NCBI GenBank assembly: GCA_036488085.1
Contig: DASXHZ010000089.1
Coordinates: forward strand, 5,578-69,577
Direction: 5' to 3'
Origin: Thermoanaerobaculia bacterium
GTDB lineage: Bacteria; Acidobacteriota; Thermoanaerobaculia; Gp7-AA8
Length of the DNA: 64,000 nucleotides
Made by a program: the position numbers and the translations under genes. Under the pieces are notes generated by a model that ran no database searches, was not told where the DNA came from, and worked only from the letters and a program-made list of their open reading frames with translations. Of the stretch, positions 2,392-60,777 are shown one piece after another (the first letter of the stretch is position 1; the number at the start of each line of letters is the position of its first letter).

Positions 2392-5300
2392 ATGAAACGC
2401 ACGCTGGTTCTTCTCTCAGCCTGTCTCACCCTCTCGGCCCACGCAATGGAATGGCGCGGCATCGGGCCGTTCCGCGGCGGACGCACCGTTGCGGCGGTAG
2501 GCGTGCCGCAGCAGCCGAACGTCTTCTACATCGGCGTCAACAACGGCGGCGTCTGGAAGACGACCGACTACGGGCGCATCTGGATGCCGATCTTCGACGA
2601 CCAGCCGACCGGCTCGGTCGGCGCGATCGCCGTCGCTCCGTCCGATCCGAACGTCATTTACGTCGGCAGTGGCGAAGGACTGCAGCGCCCCGACCTCTCG
2701 ACCGGCGACGGCATCTACAAATCGACTGATGCCGGAAAGACGTGGGCGCACCTCGGGCTCCGCGACGGCCAGCAGATCCCGATGATCAGCGTCGATCCGC
2801 ACGACGCGAACCGCCTCTTCGTCGCCGTCCTCGGCCACCCGTACGGCCCGAACGAGGAGCGCGGCATCTTCCGTTCGACCGACGGCGGCAAGACCTTCGA
2901 GAAGGTCCTCTACAAGAACGAAAACGTCGGCGGCGTCGACGTCCTCTTCGATCCGTCGAACGCACAGACCGTCTACGCGGTCCTGTGGGAGCAGCGGCAA
3001 GGCCCGTGGGAAAACGGCTCCTTCCGCGGCAACGGCAGCGGCTTCTTCAAGTCGACCGACGGCGGATCGACCTGGAAACAGATCACCAACGGCCTGCCGG
3101 GATCGGACGACGGCCTCTCGCGCATCGGCCTCGGCAACTCACCTGCTGATCCGAAGCGCCTGTACGCCGTCGTCAACGCGACGAAGAAGGCAGGCGTGTA
3201 TCGCTCCGACGACGAGGGCGAGAGCTGGCACCTGATGAATGACGACGGCCGTCTCGTCGGCTACGGCGGAGACATGAACGAGATCCGCACCGATCCGAAG
3301 AACGCGGATGTCGTTTACATCGCCGCAGTGGCGTCATGGAAGTCGACCGACGGCGGCAAGACGTGGGGGATGTTCCGCGGGGCGCCGGGCGGCGACGACT
3401 ACCACCGCTTCTGGATCAATCCGGACAACCCGAACATCATCCTGCTCGCGGCCGACCAGGGAGCCGTGATCACGGTGAACGGCGGCGAGAGCTGGAGCTC
3501 CTGGTACAACCAACCGACCGCGCAGTTTTACCACGTGAGTACCGACAACGCGTTTCCGTACCGCGTCTGCGGCGGACAGCAGGAGAGCGGGTCAGCGTGT
3601 GTGGCGAGCCGCGGCGATGACGGAGAGATTACCTTCCGCGAGTGGCACCCGGTCGGCGCGGAGGAGTATGGATACGTCGTCGCCGATCCACTGAATCCCG
3701 ACATCGTCTTCGGCGGCAAGGTGTCGCGGTACGACCGCCGCACCGATCAGGTGAACGAAGTCGGACCGATGCCGCTGCGCGGCAAGAGTTACCGCACGCT
3801 CCGGACGATGCCGATCGTCTTCTCGCCGACCGATCCGCACGTCCTCTACTTCGCGTCGAACACGGTTTGGAAGACATTGAACGGCGGGCAGTCGTGGAGC
3901 GAGATCAGCCCCGACCTGACGCGTTCGACGTGGAGCGTCCCGGCGAACGTCGGCATCTACGCGAACAGTCCCGGCGCGAAACCGACGCAGCGCGGCGTCA
4001 TCTACGCGCTCGCACCGTCGCCGCTGGACGGAAATCGTATCTGGGCGGGGACTGATGACGGCCTGATTCAGGCCACGATCGATGGCGGCAAGAACTGGAC
4101 GAACGTCACGCCGAAGGAGCTCGTACCGTTCGCGAAGGTGTCGATCCTCGAGGCGTCGCACTTCCACGCCAGCGAGGCGTACGCGGCGATCAATACCTTG
4201 CGCCTCGACGACCTCCGGCCGCACATCTACCGCACGAAAGACGGCGGGAAAAGCTGGGTGCACGTCACGAACGGCATTCCCGACGGCGCAAACGTCAACG
4301 TCGTCCGCGAAGACCCGAAGAAGGAAGGTCTCCTCTTCGCCGGCAGCGAGACGCAGGTTTACGTCTCGTTCGACGACGGCGACCACTGGGAGTCGTTGCG
4401 CCTCAACATGCCGGCGAGCTCGGTGCGCGATCTGGTCATCCACGAAGACGACCTGGTCGCCGGCACGCACGGCCGCGGCGCCTGGATCCTCGACGACATC
4501 GAGCCGCTGCGGCAGCACGGCGGTACGACCCGCCTCCTGAAACCGGCGCGAGCGTGGCGGTTCCGCTGGAACAAGAACACCGACACTCCCCTGCCGCCCG
4601 ACGAGCCGGCCGCACCGAATCCTCCGGACGGCGCGATCATCGACTACTACCTCGCCTCGCCCGCAAGTGCGGTCACGCTCGTGATTCTCGACGCCAACGG
4701 GAAGCTGGTTCGGAAGTACTCCAGCAGCGATCCGTCGCAGCCGCCCACGGAAACCGATTCGGTGCCGGCGTACTGGATCCGTCCGCCGCAGACGCTCGGA
4801 ACGACCGCCGGCCTGCACCGGTACGTGTGGGACCTCCACTACACGCCCGCTCCCGGCGTCGAGTCGACCTACCCTATCGCCGCGATCGCCCACAATACGG
4901 CGCCGGCGCCGACCTCGCCGTGGGTGATGCCGGGGACGTACAGCGTCAAGCTTACGGTCACAGTTGACGGGAACGCGAAGTCGTTCACCGAGCCGCTCAC
5001 GGTACGGATCGACCCGCGCGTGAAGACGCCGCGCGAGGGGCTGGAGCAACAGTCCCGGATCTCGAAGCAGATGTACGACGGCGTCGTCAGGGCAAACGCG
5101 GCGCTCGAAGAGCTGCACGCGCTGCGCAAAACTTTGTCGAAGGAGCTCGGTGCGAAAGCGGCGGAGATCGAAGGGGAGTCGCGCGGCGGCTTCGAATACA
5201 GCTTCCCGCGCCCCATCGGCGCGCCGCGTGAGACGCTGAGCAGCGTCTCGCACTCCATGCTCTCGATCATGAACCTCGCACAACAGGCCGACGTCACGCC

Positions 5301-10437: not shown

Positions 10438-10987
10438 TGTGGCCGTCTTGCGGCGCGACCCAGACGGTGTAGCGGTCGCCCGTGTTCGCGTCGGTGAAGT
10501 CATAGCGGCGGAGGTTGCCCTCCATGGAGAGCTGCGGCGTCCCCTCTTTCTTCTGCGGATCGGGGAAAACAGTGAGCCGCTCCCACAGTTTCTCGAACTT
10601 CCGCGGGATGTCCTTCACCGCTTTTCCCTTGTGCGTCCAGACGATCCCGGTGGCCTTAGCCTCCGCTCTCCACTCGCCGTCGCTCGTGTCGACGATCAGT
10701 AGCTCGGCGCCAGGCGTCTTCCGGATCATGTCGCCCGCGCCGTCCGTGGACTTGAACTGGAGCATTGCCGCGATGCGGATGCAGTCGACCGCGGCAGCGT
10801 ACGAGCCATCGCCGGCGCAATGCTGCGGCGTCGACTTGAGCGGCCGCTTCACCGCCTCGGGCGTAGGAGCCGGATGACGGATAACGGATAACGGATGACG
10901 ACTCACGGGAGGTTGCGGCTTCACGGGGTGCTCGCGCCCGCACGCAACGACAACCGCAAGAGCGAGAACGACGATCGAACGGCGCAT
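10394..10987 (-). CDS. hypothetical lipoprotein
   Basis: MRRSIVVLALAVVVAC lipobox-like N-terminus; co-oriented 13 nt downstream of the PilZ gene. Confidence 0.5.
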   Translation of the reverse strand: MRRSIVVLALAVVVACGREHPVKPQPPVSRHPLSVIRHPAPTPEAVKRPLKSTPQHCAGDGSYAAAVDCIRIAAMLQFKSTDGAGDMIRKTPGAELLIVDTSDGEWRAEAKATGIVWTHKGKAVKDIPRKFEKLWERLTVFPDPQKKEGTPQLSMEGNLRRYDFTDANTGDRYTVWVAPQDGHITKMQVNSWSIWFA

Positions 10988-14072: not shown

Positions 14073-15610
14073 GCCGCGTACAAGCGTCCGCTCATGAAGA
14101 CGACGTTGACGGCGACGAAACCGATCATGCCCGCCGTCGCCTCCGTGGTGATGCGCACCTGCGCCTCCGAAAGGACGAACAGGCGTTGCATCACCGCGTA
14201 AACGACCGTCGCTGCTGAGAGCGTGACGACGCTCAGCGGAACGGCCGCTAAACGCCAGAAATTGCCCGTGCGCCGCTCCTTCGCCGTCGGGATGTACGGC
14301 ACCGCGACATTGCCGAGCGCGAGCATGAACGCCTTCAGATAGACGCTCCAGCAACCGATCTTGAGCAGCGTTCCGCGCCAGTGCCACCCGCGCTCGCGAG
14401 CTGGATCGCACATCCACCGCTGGACGAATCGATAGATCGCCACGCCGAACACGCCGACCGGCAGCGCATGGACGACGTATTCGGAAAGGAACATCGCAGC
14501 CGGCTGCAATCCGGTGAGGAGGTAGAGCAGCGGAATCGTCAGGTAGATGAGCGAGGTCAGCCCGACGAGGTAGTAGGTTCCGATCATCGCGTACGAAATC
14601 CGCTGATGGTTGGTCAGGTGCCGGAAGGCGCGCGGGTATTCGCGGAAGAGGACTTCGTACACCCCCCTCGCCCACTTCAGTTGCTGCCTGAGAAACGAGT
14701 CGAGGTCTTCCGGGACGAGGCCGCGCGCGACGACCTCCGGCACGTAAACCGACTTCCACCCTTTCGCGTGCAGCCGGATCGCCGTGACGAGATCCTCGGC
14801 CAGTCCGATTCCGTGGCCGCCGATCGAGTCGAGCGCCGCGCGCCGGAATGTGCAGTTCGCTCCGATCGCGACCGCCGTCCCAGTTCCGTGCATCCCCTGG
14901 AGGATCGGTCCGTAGAACGAGAACGTCTGCTCCGCCGCCGCGCGCGCGACGAACGAACGCGGTGCGTTGTAGTACGTCTGCGCCACCTGCACGAACCCGA
15001 CGTGCTCGTCATCGAAGTAGCCGAGCACACGGTCGAGGAACTCCGGAAACGGGACGTGGTCGGGATCGAGCACGAGGACGATCTCTTCGGTCGTCCGCTT
15101 CAGCGCCGCATTGACCTTCCCCGCCTTCGCGGCCGGTATGCCGACAAGCTCGAGGTGCACCGTGCCCATCTCCTCCGCGAGCGCCGCTATCTGCGGGTCA
15201 CGCGTGTCGTCGAGGAGATACGTCGTATGCGGATACTGGACGTCCCGCGCCGCCGCGAGCGTCCTCTCGAACATCGCCAACGGCTCCCCCGGCGCCGCCG
15301 TCGTGAAAATCGCGACTGTTCTCTGTAGCGCTGGCAATCCCGCGGGCGCCGGCTGTTCGATATGAAAAACGTTGTACCAACCCACCAGCATCCGCGAGAT
15401 GCCGTACCACGTCGCGAACGACAGCAGCACGAACAGCGGCAGGTTCCCGACGTGCTCCGCGCGGAACCACCAGAGGGCGAAGATCACTACGCTCTGCAGG
15501 CCGAGGAAAAGCAGCACGCCGAGAACCCACCGCTCCCACCGCGCGATCGGTTTCGCGCGGCGCCAGCGGAAGACCTCAGAACCGTCCTGCCACGCTCGCG
15601 TGGATCTCAT
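14003..15610 (-). CDS. processive family-2 glycosyltransferase, cellulose-synthase-like, no PilZ domain
   Basis: LLDDT, VLDPD, AEDL and QQLKW (D,D,D,QxxRW) motifs with 2 TM helices N-terminal and several C-terminal. Confidence 0.8.
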   Translation of the reverse strand: MRSTRAWQDGSEVFRWRRAKPIARWERWVLGVLLFLGLQSVVIFALWWFRAEHVGNLPLFVLLSFATWYGISRMLVGWYNVFHIEQPAPAGLPALQRTVAIFTTAAPGEPLAMFERTLAAARDVQYPHTTYLLDDTRDPQIAALAEEMGTVHLELVGIPAAKAGKVNAALKRTTEEIVLVLDPDHVPFPEFLDRVLGYFDDEHVGFVQVAQTYYNAPRSFVARAAAEQTFSFYGPILQGMHGTGTAVAIGANCTFRRAALDSIGGHGIGLAEDLVTAIRLHAKGWKSVYVPEVVARGLVPEDLDSFLRQQLKWARGVYEVLFREYPRAFRHLTNHQRISYAMIGTYYLVGLTSLIYLTIPLLYLLTGLQPAAMFLSEYVVHALPVGVFGVAIYRFVQRWMCDPARERGWHWRGTLLKIGCWSVYLKAFMLALGNVAVPYIPTAKERRTGNFWRLAAVPLSVVTLSAATVVYAVMQRLFVLSEAQVRITTEATAGMIGFVAVNVVFMSGRLYAAWKDSDHTRPDAATKSPSSPSAG

Positions 15611-17049: not shown

Positions 17050-17535
17050 CCGCGATACGGCGAGGGCGCCCCTCGCAGCGGCAACGGAGCCCCTCGTTGC
17101 GGCCGGGTCGCCACTCAAGGTCGTCAACCCACCCCCTCGACGTGGCGAGAGTGCCCCTCGCAGTGGTGCGCGGCCTCTCGACGCCGGCGGTACGCCCTCT
17201 CCAAGGGGAAAGGCGGCCCCTCCAAGGGGGAGCGCGGTCGCTTCCTGGTGAAGATGTTGCCCCTCGCAGTGACCGCGTTGCCGCTTCCGGTGGCCACGCG
17301 GCCCCTCGCGGTGGACGCTGTCCCGCTCGATGCGATTCCGCGGCCCCTCGTCGTGGACGTCGTACTCACTCGCGGGGGCCACGGTCCCCCTCGGAGCGGC
17401 CGCGGTTTCCCCTCGCGGGGCCACCTACCCTCACGGAGGGTCCGGCGTCTCACTCGCGGGGGCCACGATCCCGTTCGCGGCGGCCGCCGTCCTACGCGCA
17501 GCGGCAACGATCCCGCTCGCAAGAGCCGCCGGCGC
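17050..17535. repeat. degenerate 21-bp tandem repeat array (~23 units, core CCCCTCGCGG)
   Basis: CCTCG-type cores recur at 17071, 17092, 17135, 17156, 17217, 17262, 17304, 17325, 17346, 17389, 17411, 17473... with 21-22 bp spacing. Confidence 0.7.
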
Positions 17536-32885: not shown

Positions 32886-33033
32886 CACCGGAAGTCGGAC
32901 TGGTAGCAAACCTCGCCCTGCATCGCCGGCCATCGAGACGTGTGTAGGGACCGGCTCTCAGCCGGCCCTGGTGCGGCCTAACCCGGATTAAGGCGGGCGC
33001 GGGCTGGAAAGCCCGCGCCACACGGATGGCTAT

Positions 33034-36454: not shown

Positions 36455-36512
36455 CTGGTGTGTGGGGCCGGCTCTCAGCCGGCCCGGGTCGGCTAAGAGC
36501 CGACCCCGCACA
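36455..36512. repeat. family B REP doublet downstream of the VWA gene
   Basis: GTGTGTGGGGCCGGCTCTCAGCCGGCCCGGGTCGGCTAAGAGCCGACCCCGCACAC. Confidence 0.7.
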
Positions 36513-40063: not shown

Positions 40064-40158
40064 AGTTTCGTTACTCGTTACTCGTTATTCGTTACTCGGG
40101 GAACCGTTATCTGTTATCCGTTATCCGAGTAACGAATAACGAATAACGAACCGCGTTC
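40064..40158. terminator. AT-rich heptamer-built palindrome between pstB and phoU (putative terminator or attenuator)
   Basis: (CGTTAYT)x4 - GGAA - (CYGTTAT)x3 - (ARTAACG)x3; outer blocks form ~26-bp imperfect stem. Confidence 0.55.
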
Positions 40159-46019: not shown

Positions 46020-46502
46020 TCAAACGCAATCCCGAATACGATCCGGATACATCTCCTTGTGATCCCAGCCGCCAAGCTGCGACGCGTCGGGATTGTTCAA
46101 CACGTACTCGATCGTCTGCGCCAGTTCACGCGCGTTCCGAATCAGGCGGTCAAAGTAATCCTTCTGCCACAGCCTCCCGCCCGCGATTGCACGCGCAGTC
46201 ACGCTCTTCCAAGTCTTGATGATCGTCGCGATCGAGGCAGTCGGACGAAAAATCACGTGAACGTGGTCCGGCATGACACACCACACGAGCAGCAGGTAGT
46301 CGCGTTCATCGTCATGCCGGAGTACCTCGGCGACGATGTCTGCGTCCGCATGGGTGAGCTGACGGCGAGCGCCGACGCAAAACGTGACGAATTGCGTGCC
46401 ATGCGCTGCGTCCCAATGCGGCAGCTTCTTGCGACGATGCACCGTCACCGCACCTGGCTCGAACGTACCGTAGACACCCGACAGATCGCGCACCAGCGTC
46501 AC
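46020..46502 (-). CDS. REP-associated tyrosine transposase (RAYT, IS200/IS605 TnpA-like Y1 HUH)
   Basis: MPDHVHVI HUH motif and WQKDYFDRLIRN catalytic-Tyr motif; flanked by REP doublet. Confidence 0.75.
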   Translation of the reverse strand: MTLVRDLSGVYGTFEPGAVTVHRRKKLPHWDAAHGTQFVTFCVGARRQLTHADADIVAEVLRHDDERDYLLLVWCVMPDHVHVIFRPTASIATIIKTWKSVTARAIAGGRLWQKDYFDRLIRNARELAQTIEYVLNNPDASQLGGWDHKEMYPDRIRDCV

Positions 46503-46539
46503 GTTTCGAGACTACCTCGGATCCGGTGTCCCCCCAGCG

Positions 46540-46745
46540 CGGCTATCGCCGCGCAGGCGGACGAGGGCGTCCGCCTCTCCAGGCGGTGGAATCGCAACTT
46601 GCCAGGTGAGGCGCACGCAGCGCGGCTATCGCCGCGCGGGCGGACGAGGGCGTCCGCCCCTCCAAAAGCGCGACCCGGGAGGGGGGCACGCCGCCCAGGC
46701 TGGAGAATCGCGAAACTTGCCCGGAGGGGCGCACGCCCTCGTGCG
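46540..46745. mobile_element. REP doublet (family A hairpins GGCGGACG-cccT-CGTCCGCC) adjacent to RAYT, forming a REPIN-like unit
   Basis: two copies of ~95-bp unit each with GGCGGACGAGGGCGTCCGCC and GGCGCACG..CGTGCGCC hairpins; reverse-complement of 58.6-kb tandem repeats. Confidence 0.6.
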
Positions 46746-46774
46746 CCCAGCCGCGCGTCAGCGCGGCGAATCGC

Positions 46775-46793
46775 CTTCACACCGATTTTGGAC
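46775..46793 (+). promoter_or_regulatory. Pho-box-like site upstream of ppx (CTTCACACCGATTTTGGAC)
   Basis: 15/19 match to the pstS1 box, same orientation relative to transcription, ~40 nt upstream of ppx ATG. Confidence 0.35.
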
Positions 46794-46830
46794 CGGCGCG
46801 CGCGCTCCGCTTGCATACTCTCCGACGCAG

Positions 46831-48315
46831 ATGGCGACACCACGGCGGATTGCGGCGATCGATGTGGGGACGAACTCGATCCATATGATCGTGGCGGAAC
46901 TGCAGCGGCGCGGGTATCGGGTGGTCGACAAAGAGAAGGAGATGGTGCAGCTCGGCCTCAGCAGCCTCGATGGCGCGCCTCTGAGCGAGAGCGCCATGAG
47001 CCGCGGCGTCGACGCGATCGCGCACATGGCGGAAGTCGCGCGCGGCTGGGAGGTGGAGGAGATCATCGCCGTCGCAACCAGTGCCGTCCGAGAGGCGCCG
47101 AACCGCCGCGAGTTTCTGCGGCGCGTCAAAGACGCCTCCGGCGTGAAGCTGCGCTGCATCTCCGGCGAGGAGGAAGCGGACTACATCTACCGCGCCATCC
47201 GCTCCTCGGTCGACCTCGGCGGCGGCACGTCGCTCTGCATCGACATCGGCGGCGGCAGCGTGGAGTTCATCATCGCAACCGCGTCGGAGATCTACTTCAC
47301 CGCGAGCGAACCCCTCGGGTCATTGCGTCTCGCGCAGCGTTTCCGCCTGCAGGACCTCGCGACGGCCGACGACATCGCAGCCTGCCGCCGCTTCGCCGCC
47401 GGGCATCTGAAAAAGGTCCACAAACAGGTGCGGCTGATCGGCGTCGACCAGTGCATCGGGACCTCGGGAACGATTCAGGCGCTGGCGACCCTCGTCCCGC
47501 AGCCGTTCACGCGCGCGGCGCTCGAAGAGCTCCTCGGCCGCCTGACCGGCACGACGGCGAAGGAGCGCGTCGAGCGATTCGGCATCGAAGAAAAGCGCGC
47601 GAACACGATCCTCGGCGGCGCCGTCGCCCTGGTCGCGATCTTGGAGACGCTCGGCATCGAGTCGCTGATCGTCTCCCCCGCCGCCATTCGCGAAGGGATC
47701 ATCGTCGCGCGGGCGGCGGTGAAGACATCGGCGAGCGCGCGTTCGCTGCGGCGCTCGTCCGTGCTGGCGCTCGCGGAGCGGAGCGACTGCGACAAGCGGC
47801 ACGCGCGGCACGTGGCGCTGCTCGCGGCGCGCATCTTCGATCAGACGGCGCGGCTGCACGCGCTGCCGCTCGACAGCCGCGAGCTCCTCGAGCATGCCGC
47901 CCTTTTGCACGAGGTCGGGATGCACGTGAGCGATCGCGGCTACCACAAGCACTCGTACTACCTGATCCGCCATGCGGCGCTGCGCGGCTTCAGCGACGAG
48001 GAGCTCGCCGTGATCGCGAACGTGGCGCGCTATCACCGCAAGTCGGAGCCGGATGACGATCACGAGAACCTTGCGGAGCTGTCGGCGGCGCAGCGGGGCG
48101 ACGTCGAGAAGCTCTCCGCGATCCTCCGGATCGCCGAGGCGCTCGATCGGAGCCATCGGCAATCGGTGCGCGACGTCGCGGTGCGGCTCGACGGGAACGT
48201 CAAGTTCCTCGTCCGCGCGCGGTCAAACGCCGCGGTCGAGATCGCCGCCGCGGAGAAGCGCGCCCGCTACTTCGGCACGCTGTTTGAGCGCAAAGTGCGC
48301 TTCGAGGTGGTGTGA
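46831..48315 (+). CDS. ppx: exopolyphosphatase Ppx/GppA with C-terminal HD domain
   Basis: IAAIDVGTNSIHMIV actin-like fold start; HD motif region; ATG at 46831 verified. Confidence 0.85.
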   Translation: MATPRRIAAIDVGTNSIHMIVAELQRRGYRVVDKEKEMVQLGLSSLDGAPLSESAMSRGVDAIAHMAEVARGWEVEEIIAVATSAVREAPNRREFLRRVKDASGVKLRCISGEEEADYIYRAIRSSVDLGGGTSLCIDIGGGSVEFIIATASEIYFTASEPLGSLRLAQRFRLQDLATADDIAACRRFAAGHLKKVHKQVRLIGVDQCIGTSGTIQALATLVPQPFTRAALEELLGRLTGTTAKERVERFGIEEKRANTILGGAVALVAILETLGIESLIVSPAAIREGIIVARAAVKTSASARSLRRSSVLALAERSDCDKRHARHVALLAARIFDQTARLHALPLDSRELLEHAALLHEVGMHVSDRGYHKHSYYLIRHAALRGFSDEELAVIANVARYHRKSEPDDDHENLAELSAAQRGDVEKLSAILRIAEALDRSHRQSVRDVAVRLDGNVKFLVRARSNAAVEIAAAEKRARYFGTLFERKVRFEVV

Positions 48316-54280: not shown

Positions 54281-54318
54281 CTCTCGATCCAGGGCCGGCT
54301 GAGAGCCGGCCCCACACA

Positions 54319-55406: not shown

Positions 55407-55434
55407 GACTAGTGACTAGTGACTAGTGACTAGT
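55407..55434. repeat. (GACTAGT)x4 perfect heptamer tandem, each unit containing the palindrome ACTAGT
   Basis: read directly; lies 22 nt upstream of aquaporin ATG and encodes the last codons and stop of the EAL gene. Confidence 0.8.
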
Positions 55435-56285: not shown

Positions 56286-56345
56286 AGGGAGTAAAGGTTC
56301 TGTGTGCGGGGTCGGCTCTCAGCCGACCCAGGGCCGGCTGAGAGC
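56286..56345. repeat. family B REP doublet (GGTCGGCTCTCAGCCGACC + GGCCGGCTGAGAGCCGGCC flanked by TGTGTG/CACACAC)
   Basis: same hairpin pair at 36455-36512, single hairpins at 32940-32975, 54283-54318, 56495-56545, 58935-58965. Confidence 0.7.
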
Positions 56346-56700
56346 CGGCCCCACACACTACTCCTCCGTGCGCTTGCGCCGCTTCTTCTGCCGCTCGAGC
56401 TTCCGGAGGCGCTGCATCTCCTCGTAAATGGGGATCAACTGCTCGTTCTCGGGTAAGCGCACCAGGTGCTTGGTCACGGCGAAGGCGTGGTCAGCGATCG
56501 GCTCTCAGCCGACCCAGGGCCGGCTGAGAGCCGGCCCCACACACTACTCCTCCGTGCGCTTGCGCCGCTTCTTCTGCCGCTCGAGCTTGCGGAGACGCTG
56601 CATCTCCTCGTAAATGGGGATCAGTATCTCGTTCTCGGGTAAGCGCACGAGATGCTTCGTCACGGCGAAGGCGTGGTCGGCGATCAACCCGAGCTTGTAG
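56305..56700. repeat. ~195-bp direct tandem duplication including gene 3' end plus REP hairpin
   Basis: 56310-56498 vs 56499-56690 near-identical; creates a duplicated C-terminal fragment (..ADHAFAVTKHLVRLPENE(Q/I)LIPIYEEMQRLRKLERQKKRRKRTEE). Confidence 0.7.
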
Positions 56701-58006: not shown

Positions 58007-58029
58007 CCGGGTCCGCTGAGAGCCAACCC

Positions 58030-58611
58030 CTACATTACGAACGGGAGGACGAAGTAGACGATCGCGACGATGCCGGTCACGAACGACGCGATCCAGACGG
58101 CGCGCAGCCGGGTGAGCGCGCCGACGGCGCCGAGGGCGATGGCGATCTGGAAGATGGCCACGGCCGCGGCGAACTTGTGGTGGCGGTGAATGAGCTCGTC
58201 CGCCTCCGAAGACTTGACGTCGCGCTCCTTCTCGAGCTTCTTCGCCTCGATCGAGATCTGTTGCTGTTCGGCGGTGTATCGCTTGGCCGTGGCTGCGACG
58301 TCAGCCGGCACCGGATGTCCGGACGCCGACCATGACGCGCCAATCGCGGACTGCACGGCGGCCTTGATCCCCTTCGCCTGGTAATACGCCCACTGATCCG
58401 ACGCCTGCCCTTGCAGCTGCGCCGCCTCGTTCTTCAGCACCAGCGCTTCGTTGATCGTGCTCCCCGCGAGGAGCGACGCGACCGCGGCGATCGCCGCGAA
58501 GATCGCCGTCGTCAGCGCGATCTGTTTGACGAGCGAGCCGCCTTCGTGCTCCAGCTCCTCGTGAATCGCCTCGTGCAGGCGATCGGTATCGACCTCGGGA
58601 CCTTCAGGCAT
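58030..58611 (-). CDS. DUF4337 domain membrane protein
   Basis: MPEGPEVDTD..HEEL N-terminus and C-terminal TM helices typical of DUF4337. Confidence 0.65.
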   Translation of the reverse strand: MPEGPEVDTDRLHEAIHEELEHEGGSLVKQIALTTAIFAAIAAVASLLAGSTINEALVLKNEAAQLQGQASDQWAYYQAKGIKAAVQSAIGASWSASGHPVPADVAATAKRYTAEQQQISIEAKKLEKERDVKSSEADELIHRHHKFAAAVAIFQIAIALGAVGALTRLRAVWIASFVTGIVAIVYFVLPFVM

Positions 58612-58619
58612 GCGCGTCA

Positions 58620-58965
58620 TTGTACAGATTGAATCGGAGGGGCGGACGCCCTCGTCCGCCTGCGCGGCGAAGCCGCGCTATCGCGCGGCCGGGCGCACGA
58701 GGGCGTGCGCCCCTCCATGAAGACCCGAGGTACACATGGATCGTCTGGCCGATTGAATCGGAGAGGCGGACGCCCTCGTCCGCCTGCGCGGCAGAGCCGC
58801 GCTATCGCGCGGCCGGGCGCACGGGGGCGTGCGCCCCCCCAGGAAAACCCGAGGTACACATGTTTCGTCTGGCCGATTGAATCGGAGGGGCGGACGCCCT
58901 CGTCCGCCTGCGCGGCGAAGCCGCGCAACCAAGGGCCGGCTAAGAGCCGGCCCCTTACACGAAGG
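58620..58965. repeat. three tandem ~123-bp copies of family A REP unit (RAYT-type hairpins) ending in a family B hairpin
   Basis: GGCCGATTGAATCGGAGGGGCGGACGCCCTCGTCCGCCTGCGCGG..GGCGCACGAGGGCGTGCGCC repeated at ~58640, 58745, 58870. Confidence 0.8.
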
Positions 58966-58971
58966 CGAAAA

Positions 58972-60684
58972 TCACTGCACGTTGAGCGCGAAGTCGTCGA
59001 CGACGAACGACGTCTGATCGAGGCTGTCCTCGGCGCCGACGAGGTAGACCTGGATCGTCTGGCCGATGTACGAGTTGAGGCTGAACGACTTCTGCGAGTA
59101 GCCGGTGTTGTGGTTCAGATTCGAGTACGTCGCGAGCGTGGCGAGCACGGTGCCGGACGAGTTGCGGATCTGCACCTTCAGCGTGTCGTACGCCGTCGTG
59201 GTGGTCGTCTCGGCGGTGTCGATGTGGAGGTAGAACGTCAGCGTCGCCGACGTCTTACCCGACGGAATCGCGACCTGCTGGTAGAGCGTGTCGGTGTGCG
59301 TGGTGCCGTAGCCGTCCATCCACGCATCCCATGAACCGGTGTGCGGCGGCTCGTTCGTCGAGTTGCTGACGACGCTAGCGCTCGCGACCCACGGCGAGGC
59401 CGTGCCGGTCTCGAAGCCGGGGTTGACGAGGAGCTGCGTCGAGCCGGTGGAGTTGTTCACGGTGACGGTGACGGTCGACGACGTGCCGACGTTCCCCGCC
59501 GCGTCGTAGGCCTTCGTGACCAACGAGTGCGAGCTGTTCGCGAACGTGGTCGTGTCCCAGCTCCAGGAGTACGGCGAGGTGGTATCGGTCGTGCGCAACG
59601 CGCCGTCCATATAGAACTCGACCTTAGTCACGCCGACGTTGTCGGACGCGTTCGCAGTCACGTTCACGGTTCCGCTGACGGTCGATCCGTTCGTGGGAGC
59701 AGTGATGGAAGTCGTCGGAGGCGTGGTGTCGCCGCCGCCACCGCCCCCCGATCCGTTCGCGAGCCAGGCGACCGCGTTGGCGTAAATCAGCCCGTTGTCG
59801 TAGCTCGGATCGTTGTACCCGAGGTACGTCGTGTGGCCGCAGGAGTTCGTGGCATCTTCACCGGTCGACGAGTCGCCGACGGCGGCGACGCGGCCGGTGC
59901 CGTAGGTCGACGTCGCGAACGTGACGCCGGTGGTCGAGCCTTTCGCGACGCCGGTCTTCCAGATGTGGGCCTTCGCGGCGCCGCTGACCGTCATCGAGCT
60001 GGAGCCGAACAGGCCGAGACCTCTTCCGGACGATGGGACGCCGAAGGCGCCCGTGAAGACGATCGGCGAGGTCGTGTCTGTCGTGTAGTTGTCGTCGGGA
60101 TGGTTGTCGAACCATCCGAAGCTGCTGTCGGAGGAGTTGTCGTTGTAGGTGATGCCGAAGACCGACGGGCTGCCCATGAGCTGATTGAACACGCCTGCCG
60201 CGTCGATGCCGTCGTTGTTGCGGTCGGCGCCGGCATGGTCGGAGATCATGAAAAGACCGCCGCCGCCGTTCACGAAGTTGCGGATCGCGGTGATCTCGGC
60301 GGACGTGAAGGCGATGTTCGGCTCGGGGATGACGAAGACGTTGTAGTTCTTGAGGTCCTGGGCGTTGGTGCCGTCGTTGTAGCTGATACGGCCGGTGGTC
60401 GGAAGGCTCTCGACGTGGAAGCCTTTCTTCACGAGGTCGACGCCCATCGCGGAGAACCCGCCCGACCAGTAGGTCTCGGCGGTCGACGACGTGATCCCCG
60501 CCTGGTCGGGGGTCGGGAAGCGCTGGGCGACGCCGCACGAGTCTTCATCGAGCGTCCAGTCGGCGTTGCCGGCCGTCTGCGCGTGCTTGGCGTCGAAGAG
60601 AATGGTTTTCTGCTGCGCGAATGCGGTGAGGGAAACGACGAGAAGCAGAGAGAAAACGAGGGCCCTGAGAGAGAACGTGGTCAT
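58972..60684 (-). CDS. secreted protein with Ig-like (Big) domain and C-terminal CBM-like beta-sandwich
   Basis: signal peptide; GGGGGG linker; TAPTNGSTVSGTVNVTANASDNVGVTKVEFY Ig-like unit; C-terminal LLVNPGFE...DDF carbohydrate-binding-like region. Confidence 0.6.
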   Translation of the reverse strand: MTTFSLRALVFSLLLVVSLTAFAQQKTILFDAKHAQTAGNADWTLDEDSCGVAQRFPTPDQAGITSSTAETYWSGGFSAMGVDLVKKGFHVESLPTTGRISYNDGTNAQDLKNYNVFVIPEPNIAFTSAEITAIRNFVNGGGGLFMISDHAGADRNNDGIDAAGVFNQLMGSPSVFGITYNDNSSDSSFGWFDNHPDDNYTTDTTSPIVFTGAFGVPSSGRGLGLFGSSSMTVSGAAKAHIWKTGVAKGSTTGVTFATSTYGTGRVAAVGDSSTGEDATNSCGHTTYLGYNDPSYDNGLIYANAVAWLANGSGGGGGGDTTPPTTSITAPTNGSTVSGTVNVTANASDNVGVTKVEFYMDGALRTTDTTSPYSWSWDTTTFANSSHSLVTKAYDAAGNVGTSSTVTVTVNNSTGSTQLLVNPGFETGTASPWVASASVVSNSTNEPPHTGSWDAWMDGYGTTHTDTLYQQVAIPSGKTSATLTFYLHIDTAETTTTTAYDTLKVQIRNSSGTVLATLATYSNLNHNTGYSQKSFSLNSYIGQTIQVYLVGAEDSLDQTSFVVDDFALNVQ

Positions 60685-60777
60685 CCTTCCTCCATCGATC
60701 GGTTTTCGGGTCGGGGGATTGTGCCGCACAAGACGCGTTTCCGCACCTATTTCCTGTGAAGTTCGTGGGGGGGGGTG

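Follow-up and report, generated by a model that had tools for sequence, protein, structure and literature searches.

Experiments on REP-associated tyrosine transposases (RAYTs) and their repetitive extragenic palindromes (REPs) have so far been confined almost entirely to Enterobacteria, Pseudomonas and Stenotrophomonas. In the REPtron of Escherichia coli K-12, the gene of a small Y1 HUH enzyme (TnpA_REP, also YafM or RayT; structure 4ER8) adjoins hairpin repeats with a 5′ tetranucleotide foot, and the W94-Q95...R104 region of the enzyme contacts the GTAG foot of the REP (PMC6006769). In Pseudomonas fluorescens SBW25, inverted REP doublets (REPINs) form long hairpins (PMC3116915). Published surveys take a GT[AG]G foot as the mark of a canonical REP (PMC3733652, PMC6006769), and REPs are held to be species-specific (PMC6006769). 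Such in silico surveys cover some Acidobacteria, in the form of tyrosine transposases associated with terminal inverted repeats (TIRYTs) and of class 3 enzymes with non-REP repeats (PMC3733652, PMC6006769); Acidobacteria are unmentioned in Nunvar 2010 and Bertels 2017. Here we analyse a 64,000-nt stretch of DNA from a Thermoanaerobaculia bacterium (Acidobacteriota; contig DASXHZ010000089.1; G+C content 65.6%; hereafter the window), which carries a RAYT gene and, at 46.5 and 58.6 kb, two arrays of a short REP. The locus is very likely a REPtron, that is, a chromosomal, domesticated RAYT (TnpA_REP) gene with copies of its cognate REP, which its product most likely mobilises. This reading draws on family and structure searches, on invariant residues of the protein, on a flank test within the window, on recurrent linkage of the same REP to related genes and on its dispersal without the gene. 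The kind of system is already known, and the locus is a well-formed example of it in the little-studied Thermoanaerobaculia. A preliminary description of the window had called RAYT/REPIN systems essentially uncharacterised in Acidobacteria-like lineages, which is right for experiments but not for annotation and in silico work, since the family is automatically annotated as RayT and the surveys cited above exist.

By family, fold and residues, the open reading frame (ORF) at the centre of the locus is an intact HUH/Y1 enzyme of the RAYT class:

46020..46502, minus strand: RAYT (TnpA_REP-like) Y1 HUH transposase gene, 160 aa (Pfam, NCBIfam, alignment to 4er8, AlphaFold2 (AF2) model, dN/dS)

The gene has a GTG start, and its product is 100% identical to a database protein annotated “transposase” (Thermoanaerobaculia bacterium). 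It matches the Pfam model Y1_Tnp (PF01797) with 33.4 bits, above the cutoff of 23, and its top NCBIfam model is REP_Tyr_transpos (NF047646) with 66.3 bits. The nearest PDB entry by sequence is 4er8, the E. coli TnpA_REP (E 3.6e-6), with an identity of about 21–23% (18% in the multiple alignment). The preliminary description had recognised a 160-aa RAYT-class product with the HUH motif PDHVHVI, and this stands: H80-V-H82 aligns to the HUH motif of 4er8. The stretch WQKDYFDRLIRN, which it had taken for the tyrosine motif, is present too; it contains WQKDYFD and aligns to W94-Q95...R104 of E. coli TnpA_REP. The catalytic tyrosine is instead Y133 of IEYVLNNP, which aligns to Y115 of the E. coli enzyme. 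Around it, Y133-V-L-N-N137-P138 aligns to Y115-I-Y-I-N119-P, with N137 at the position of the essential N119, giving the same Y-x3-N-P motif. An alignment with 19 relatives and E. coli, which had been proposed as a check of the HUH and tyrosine residues, found both present and T40, H80, H82, W112, R122, Y133 and N137 invariant. Within the foot-contacting region of the E. coli enzyme (W94, Q95, E100, H101, R104), the residues kept here are W112, Q113 and R122. Unlike in E. coli, D118/R119 replace E100/H101, as in subclasses 2.5 and 2.7 of PMC6006769, and there is an extra N-terminal K-L-P-H-W motif, of which L27-P-H-W30 is invariant within the RAYT clade.

An AF2 model, built on an alignment of clade relatives without the E. 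coli sequence, reached a pLDDT of 84 and a pTM of 0.80. Its best fold match is again 4er8_A (E 7.9e-8, root-mean-square deviation (rmsd) 3.0 Å), whereas the IS608, ISDra2 and IS200 TnpA structures deviate by 9–11 Å; the predicted fold is thus a much better fit to the 4ER8 TnpA_REP than to the insertion sequence (IS)-type TnpA structures. Comparison with three orthologues gave dN/dS values of 0.11–0.33, with dS near saturation, which indicates that the gene is under purifying selection.

The REP is a 25-nt element that reads 5′-GGAG-(G/A)-GGCG[G/C]ACG-CCCT-CGT[C/G]CGCC in the canonical orientation, or 5′-GGAG-GGGCGGACGCCCTCGTCCGCCC with its foot. A tetranucleotide foot is followed by a perfect stem of 8–9 bp (GGGCGGACG/CGTCCGCCC) with a 4-nt loop, which is a short GC-rich hairpin in the sense used for REPs (stem of 7–20 bp, loop of 2–5 nt, extragenic, repeated). 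The REP has two subtypes, GGACG/CGTCC and GCACG/CGTGC; where the stem of the first has a G:C pair, that of the second has C:G, a compensated change. They strictly alternate in orientation in both arrays. This resembles the Y and Z types of E. coli bacterial interspersed mosaic elements (BIMEs), with their two REP subtypes, alternating orientation and tandem amplification. Unlike the E. coli REP, which has a long bulged stem and a GTAG foot, the REP of the window has a short perfect stem and a GGAG foot. The foot is GGAG in seven of the eight intact REPs of the window and GGGG in the remaining one; in all Thermoanaerobaculia copies seen it is GGAG. All eight lie within the two arrays, here called clusters A and B:

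46535..46770, no strand: REP cluster A, a BIME-like array between RAYT and ppx/gppA, with three intact and two decayed REPs and accessory GCGCGGC/GCCGCGC hairpins
46556..46580, minus strand: REP of the GGACG type with foot GGAGA, 5′-GGAGA-GGCGGACG-CCCT-CGTCCGCC (pattern match)
46605..46618, plus strand: truncated remnant of a GCACG-type REP, GGTGAGGCGCACGC, abutting the next accessory hairpin (read from the sequence; partial repeat)
46639..46663, minus strand: REP of the GGACG type with foot GGAGG, adjoined by an accessory hairpin at 46620-46637 (pattern match)
46678..46696, plus strand: decayed REP, GGAGGGGGGCACGCCGCCC, which lacks 7 internal nt of the GCACG-type consensus (read from the sequence)
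46723..46747, plus strand: REP of the GCACG type with foot GGAGG, followed by the hairpin GCCGCGC-GTCA-GCGCGGC at 46750-46767 (pattern match)
58627..58926, no strand: REP cluster B, a 124-bp unit in 2.4 copies (intergenic, tandem repeat)
58636..58716, no strand: REPIN 1, 81 nt, with a GGACG-type REP at 58636-58660 (plus), a 31-nt loop and a GCACG-type REP at 58692-58716 (minus)
58760..58840, no strand: REPIN 2, with a GGACG-type REP at 58760-58784 (plus, foot GGAGA) and a GCACG-type variant at 58816-58840 (minus, foot GGGGG, loop CCCC)
58884..58926, plus strand: half REPIN 3, with a GGACG-type REP at 58884-58908 and an accessory hairpin at 58910-58926

Near the gene, the GGCGGACG-N4-CGTCCGCC hairpin occurs at 46556-46575 and 46639-46658 and the GGCGCACG-N4-CGTGCGCC hairpin at 46728-46747; the same hairpins recur at 58641, 58692, 58765, 58816 and 58889. 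The hairpin pattern has nine matches in the window where 0.39 are expected, and none of 100 shuffles reached nine. As in SBW25, whose commonest short oligonucleotides are found flanking the RAYT, a 16-mer that shares the highest count in the window (n = 5) lies in the 5′ flank of the gene; the 3′ flank has none (n = 0). A scan of the whole window at Rfam gathering thresholds matched no family, and a full-text search of a limited set of papers gave no match to the hairpin sequence. Promoter and terminator scans around clusters A and B yielded no more than shuffled sequence would; the REPs also have no T-runs, and we dropped a reading of them as terminators.

Cluster A lies in the 331-nt intergenic region from which RAYT (start 46502) and ppx/gppA (start 46834) diverge. 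As the gene is on the minus strand, the repeats are upstream (5′) of it and not 3′, where they had been placed at first. Two units were expected beside the gene and two are present, at 46535-46581 and 46618-46664 (96% identical), with a spacing of 83 bp instead of the ~95 bp first given. Each unit consists of a GCGCGGC-TATC-GCCGCGC hairpin and a GGACG-type REP. The units do not each carry both hairpins, as had been proposed, because the GCACG-type partner is intact only once beside the gene (46723-46747), being truncated at 46605-46618 and shortened by 7 nt at 46678-46696. The REP at 46556-46580 precedes the RAYT start by 53 nt and has its foot facing away from the gene; the accessory hairpin at 46537-46554 sits between this REP and the gene. 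At the distal end, the hairpin at 46750-46767, which follows the REP at 46723-46747, is what is left of the loop of a REPIN that has lost its second arm. Cluster A is a decayed BIME-like array with the architecture of cluster B, not a clean REPIN doublet. The 83-bp unit upstream of RAYT, present twice in the window, is present three times (4073-4263) in an independent JGI assembly of essentially the same strain (L250; loci from other assemblies are given L numbers), which is 99.97–100% identical to the window over 13 kb. Either the tandem copy number has really changed or short-read assembly has collapsed a unit.

The intact architecture is seen in cluster B, between the DUF4337 gene (58030-58620, minus strand) and the gene of a Big_7-domain protein (58972-60729, minus strand). 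The preliminary description had noted a tandem cluster of the same REP at 58.6 kb, and the array indeed has a period of 124 bp, 2.4 copies and 93% identity. Each unit joins an 81-nt REPIN, made up of a REP, a 31-nt loop with small hairpins and a second, inverted REP, to a 43-nt linker; the array holds three GGACG-type and two GCACG-type REPs. REPINs 1 and 2 each consist of 25 + 31 + 25 nt with the REPs inverted. As single-stranded DNA (ssDNA), REPIN 1 would fold into a 25-bp stem with two mismatches (dG −43.5 kcal/mol, z −6.7; none of 200 shuffles was as stable). These doublets resemble the REPINs of SBW25 in forming a long hairpin and differ from them in that the arms belong to different subtypes, leaving G.G and C.C mismatches in the stem. 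With two alternating subtypes, fixed linkers and tandem periods of 124 and 83 bp, the arrays have the make-up of BIMEs. Clean REPINs occur at 58.6 kb; the gene itself, first described with a REP doublet as a REPIN-RAYT unit, is adjoined by decayed or half units only. Half REPIN 3 ends against a hairpin of another family (58934-58952; see below). In a second independent JGI assembly of this strain (L248, 99.95% identical), cluster B is identical, and the 8.7 kb that this assembly adds beyond the window hold no REP of this family.

The adjacent hairpins had been proposed to be the cognate REPs of the gene, and comparison with other DNA bears this out. The same REP adjoins RAYTs that are 35–72% identical to that of the window in more than ten independent loci with differing neighbour genes. 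In L003 and L004, two Thermoanaerobaculia-like contigs (RAYTs 59% and 50% identical), the gene is bracketed by inverted REP copies with their feet outward, forming inverted repeats of 29–31 nt. L001 (72% identical) has a REP and a compensated GGATG/CATCC variant upstream, and the 40 nt before its RAYT start codon are homologous to the window. Even a 35%-identical RAYT in a Sulfotelmatobacter metagenome-assembled genome (MAG; L097) is bracketed by the same hairpin. At L126, GGAG-CGCGGACA-CTCC-TGTCCGCG lies on both sides of the gene; distant members of the clade have REPs of their own, often with a GGAG foot, and that of L125 is GGAGGAGCGACACTCCTGTCGC, that of L123 a GTAG-footed double hairpin. 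REPs are found on both sides of the RAYT in L003, L004, L097, L126 and eight metagenome loci, and only on the 5′ side in the window.

Our scans of genomes and metagenome contigs give lower bounds, from which no copy number per genome can be derived. The GGAG-footed 25-mer occurs in at least 120 metagenome stretches, which were chosen by REP sequence alone; a RAYT lies directly beside the REP in 9 of the 120 listed, and eight of these nine genes belong to a further clade (P0019-like). Among the matches listed, no RAYT accompanies the REP in 115 of 117 stretches from genomes and in 111 of 120 from metagenomes. A sister MAG (SMAG_U5216) carries it on at least four contigs, with a RAYT on only one. 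In the related metagenome DNA REPs are mostly singlets, unlike those of SBW25. The GCACG-type REP appears in none of the 139 copies outside the source species among the metagenome matches listed, and in that sample it looks private to the lineage.

The RAYTs of L003 and L004 occupy the same syntenic site and are 63% identical, within the range of their neighbours (46–89%), which argues for vertical descent in that lineage. Vertical inheritance is the pattern described for RAYTs (PMC5581495), and the orthologues behave as single, syntenic genes like those of SBW25. In the window and in L001 the gene is at two other sites, so that the gene or the whole REPtron has been relocated between lineages while being stable within them. 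The shared site of L003 (6995-9951) and L004 (4471-7326) lies between the genes of a PseudoU_synth_2 pseudouridine synthase and a nucleoside transporter.

By homology with TnpA_REP and the TnpA enzymes of the IS200/IS605 family, we can propose how such a locus would work. The RAYT would bind the REP hairpin, with its 9-bp stem and 4-nt loop, in ssDNA, for instance at a replication fork, and the W112-Q113...D118-R119...R122 region would read the 5′ foot GGAG. With a metal ion bound at H80 and H82 and with Y133 as the nucleophile, the enzyme would then cut and rejoin the ssDNA beside the hairpin through a 5′-phosphotyrosine intermediate. REPs or REPINs could thereby spread to extragenic sites, with the RAYT gene staying single-copy and vertically inherited, and the arrays at 46.5 and 58.6 kb would have been resized by tandem duplication and slippage. 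Binding, cleavage, the role of GGAG as a guide and present-day mobility are all presumed from these homologues.

Several observations weigh against the locus being a REPtron of this kind. The protein scores 66.3 bits against the REP_Tyr_transpos equivalog cutoff of 80; as this is nonetheless its best NCBIfam model, the score points to a divergent clade rather than a different family. The foot is GGAG and not the canonical GT[A/G]G. The REPs of the window are one-sided, with none in the 96-nt 3′ flank of the gene, in which the locus also differs from E. coli. REP loci number two in the 64 kb and none in the further 8.7 kb of the same species, and with two in about 73 kb a high copy number across the source genome is undemonstrated. 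Finally, we observed no transposition event of the REP family: the sole polymorphism is the two versus three tandem 83-bp units, which could be an assembly artefact. The system had been said to appear active because of the tandem cluster at 58.6 kb; this claim we withdraw, as a tandem array is no evidence of transposition and only copy-number variation was found.

These last points also bear on the most probable of the competing explanations, namely that a domesticated RAYT no longer mobilises REPs and that the arrays are maintained by the host, as stabilisers of mRNA 3′ ends, protein-binding sites or recombination substrates, the enzyme having another REP-directed role such as nicking. We regard this as improbable. 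It would account for the lack of REP insertion polymorphism, for a cluster B that is identical in the second assembly, for a cluster A that differs in tandem copy number alone and for the partial decay of the REPs beside the gene, and it agrees with the description of RAYTs as housekeeping-like, vertically inherited genes whose benefit to the host is unresolved (PMC5581495, PMC6006769). On the other hand, no catalytic residue has been lost and purifying selection acts on the gene, the REPs lack T-runs and terminator-scan matches, and in related genomes the REP is scattered over so many unrelated loci that some mechanism must have spread it at some time.

It is far less probable that the locus is an autonomous IS200/IS605-family insertion sequence whose hairpins are its left and right ends and which transposes as a whole. 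The Y1_Tnp match and a weaker one to the NCBIfam model transpos_IS200 (25.6 bits, cutoff 55) would fit such an element, as would the inverted repeats that bracket the gene in L003 and L004 and its differing chromosomal sites in different lineages. However, the protein has the Y-x3-N-P motif of class 2 (TnpA_REP type) enzymes and not the Y-x3-Q of IS200 TnpA (PMC6006769 Table 1), and its fold is far closer to 4er8 (rmsd 3.0 Å) than to the IS608 and ISDra2 TnpA (9–11 Å). There is no tnpB in the ORF list of the window, and 27 RAYT-family queries found no second Y1 gene, leaving a single RAYT copy. Moreover, the hairpins lie on one side of the gene only in the window and are overwhelmingly found without it among the matches listed, and the orthologues are syntenic with a divergence like that of their neighbours. 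That GC-rich hairpins, being extragenic and in cluster B downstream of a gene, are generic terminators or regulatory hairpins that lie near the RAYT by coincidence is scarcely credible, given the same 25-mer beside RAYTs in more than ten independent loci with differing neighbours, the asymmetric conserved foot, which is a trait of REPs and not of terminators, and the lack of T-runs and of an Rfam match.

The hairpin is also shared widely. At least 117 genome stretches (L006–L122) from many species, mostly Terriglobia, contain the exact 20-mer GGCGGACGAGGGCGTCCGCC. The foot attached to it is GTAG in most Terriglobia and in low-GC Ruminococcus/Clostridia MAGs, which are Firmicutes. In Calditrichota MAGs the hairpin forms inverted doublets with the feet GGCAA/GTCCA, and in an alphaproteobacterial Methylobacteriaceae MAG the foot is GGGAT. 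A few actinobacterial matches (G+C above 68%) look like chance, and single MAG matches, for example in Chitinophagaceae, may reflect contamination. Among the matches listed, which come from MAGs, the cross-phylum breadth of the hairpin would thus contrast with the view of REPs as species-specific. We consider it possible, if rather unlikely, that the 20-nt GGCGGACG-N4-CGTCCGCC module, which flanks RAYTs with a mutual identity of only about 35%, is a REP core conserved throughout a large RAYT lineage that has been overlooked. If so, these RAYTs would keep their recognition of the hairpin and be retargeted through a lineage-specific foot (GGAG, GTAG, GTGG, GGCA) that acts as a guide, as in IS608; the usual view of species-specific REPs would be contradicted, and much of the lineage would have been missed by surveys that require GT[AG]G. 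In the alignment of relatives, no foot-recognition residues obviously track GGAG versus GTAG feet: P0014, with a GTAG foot, and the RAYT of the window, with a GGAG foot, both carry WQ..Y.DRLIR.

Within the described classes, the signature DHVH / WQ / YVLNNP, with D and R at the E100/H101 positions, would place the protein nearest subclasses 2.7 and 2.5 of the table in PMC6006769, a placement among the subclasses of Quentin et al. 2018 made from the published motif table and not from a tree. Subclass 2.7 of the class 2 TnpA_Y1 enzymes has [ND]HVH / WQ / YI[LR][NQ]NP, and more distant members of our clade (202–235 aa, with NHVH and YI/VxxNP) resemble it in length. The short hairpin is of the type seen with subclass 2.5 or Bertels group 3 (short REPs, ~151 aa). 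The RAYT of the window lacks an insertion of ~45 aa found in relatives of 200 aa or more; its short form (149–161 aa) comprises only about 13 clusters, whereas the wider family has at least 5766 clusters at E ≤ 1e-10, automatically annotated as “REP element-mobilizing transposase RayT” (COG1943). As the REP search of PMC6006769 required GT[AG]G, a GGAG-footed REP would have gone unscored there. The acidobacterial TIRYTs, or TIRtrons (PMC3733652), and the class 3 TnpA_Y1 enzymes of Solibacter (PMC6006769) are similar in that tyrosine transposase genes are accompanied by inverted repeats that are also dispersed. Yet their terminal inverted repeats (GGGGWSAS, or foot CnGA) are described as unrelated to tetranucleotide-footed REPs (PMC3733652, PMC6006769), and unlike class 3 enzymes (Y-x4-Q, W[TA]) the protein described here has WQ, Y-x3-N-P and a footed REP hairpin.

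The GGAG foot and the recurrence of a 20-nt hairpin across RAYT lineages and several phyla are mildly notable. They are of use for annotation and for REP-finding software, in that the foot may be GGAG and the hairpin core shared beyond a species; the understanding of how RAYT/REP systems work is unchanged. REP arrays also break or collapse in short-read assemblies, as with the two versus three units, and they yield spurious ORFs. Such ORFs, 60–110 aa long and with a high content of Arg, Pro, Gly and Ala (…GGRGRPPL…, …RTRASAP…), are found in the window at 58617-58928 (minus), 58620-58880 (plus), 46499-46843 (minus) and 46543-46734 (minus). The N-terminal stretch of a database “protein” (P0012) matches the translated REP at 58765-58797, and REP translations may thus contaminate protein catalogues.

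According to the gene annotation, the neighbourhood of the RAYT is phosphate-related. A porin-like gene and pstS follow 3′ on the same strand, and ppx/gppA and the gene of a SixA-like phosphatase lie 5′ in divergent orientation.

The window also contains a second REP/REPIN family that is unrelated to the RAYT-flanking REP, with the pattern 5′-GTG(T/C)GG- or GTAG-GG(C/T)CGGCT-N3-AGCCG(G/A)CC (GTGG/GTAG-GGCCGGCT). It has the canonical GTGG/GTAG foot and compensated GGCC/GGTC subtypes, and it often forms inverted doublets with a spacer of 2–3 nt. Its sites are 32949-32967, 36466-36505, 54293-54311, 56310-56350, 56496-56536 and 58934-58952, with 13 pattern matches against 0.03 expected in the window, and in 16-mer frequency it shares the first rank in the window with the RAYT-flanking REP. 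The window holds no cognate RAYT of this family, and all other loci of an initial comparison, made before L248 was included, lack the family. At the 3′ end of the DUF4337 gene (58007-58036), the window has one decayed REP of this family, 30 nt long, and the GTAG foot of this REP provides the stop codon of the gene (…PFVM*). In L248, which is otherwise 99.95% identical, the corresponding positions 14643-14709 hold a 67-nt GTAG-footed inverted doublet and the DUF4337 C-terminus reads …PFVAR*. This difference is a REP-associated polymorphism of the second family, possibly a recent gain or loss of a REPIN. A hairpin doublet of the same family is included, together with the 3′ end of a minus-strand gene, in a 186-bp tandem duplication at 56312-56685 (2.0 copies, 94% identical).

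Further repeats are of other kinds. Inverted arrays of 7-nt tandem repeats occupy intergenic positions at 40066-40150, 10871-10900 and 55407-55434; in one example, (TCGTTAC)x4 and (CGAATAA)x3.6 can form a long hairpin with (CCGTTAT)x3 in its loop. Hairpins of this type, built from other heptamers, are found in related Thermoanaerobaculia as well (L001 873-1037; L003 2017-2169 and 10007-10192). At 17194-17520 there are degenerate 21/42-bp repeats (62–83% matches) that are rich in CCCCTCGCGG and GGCCAC motifs.

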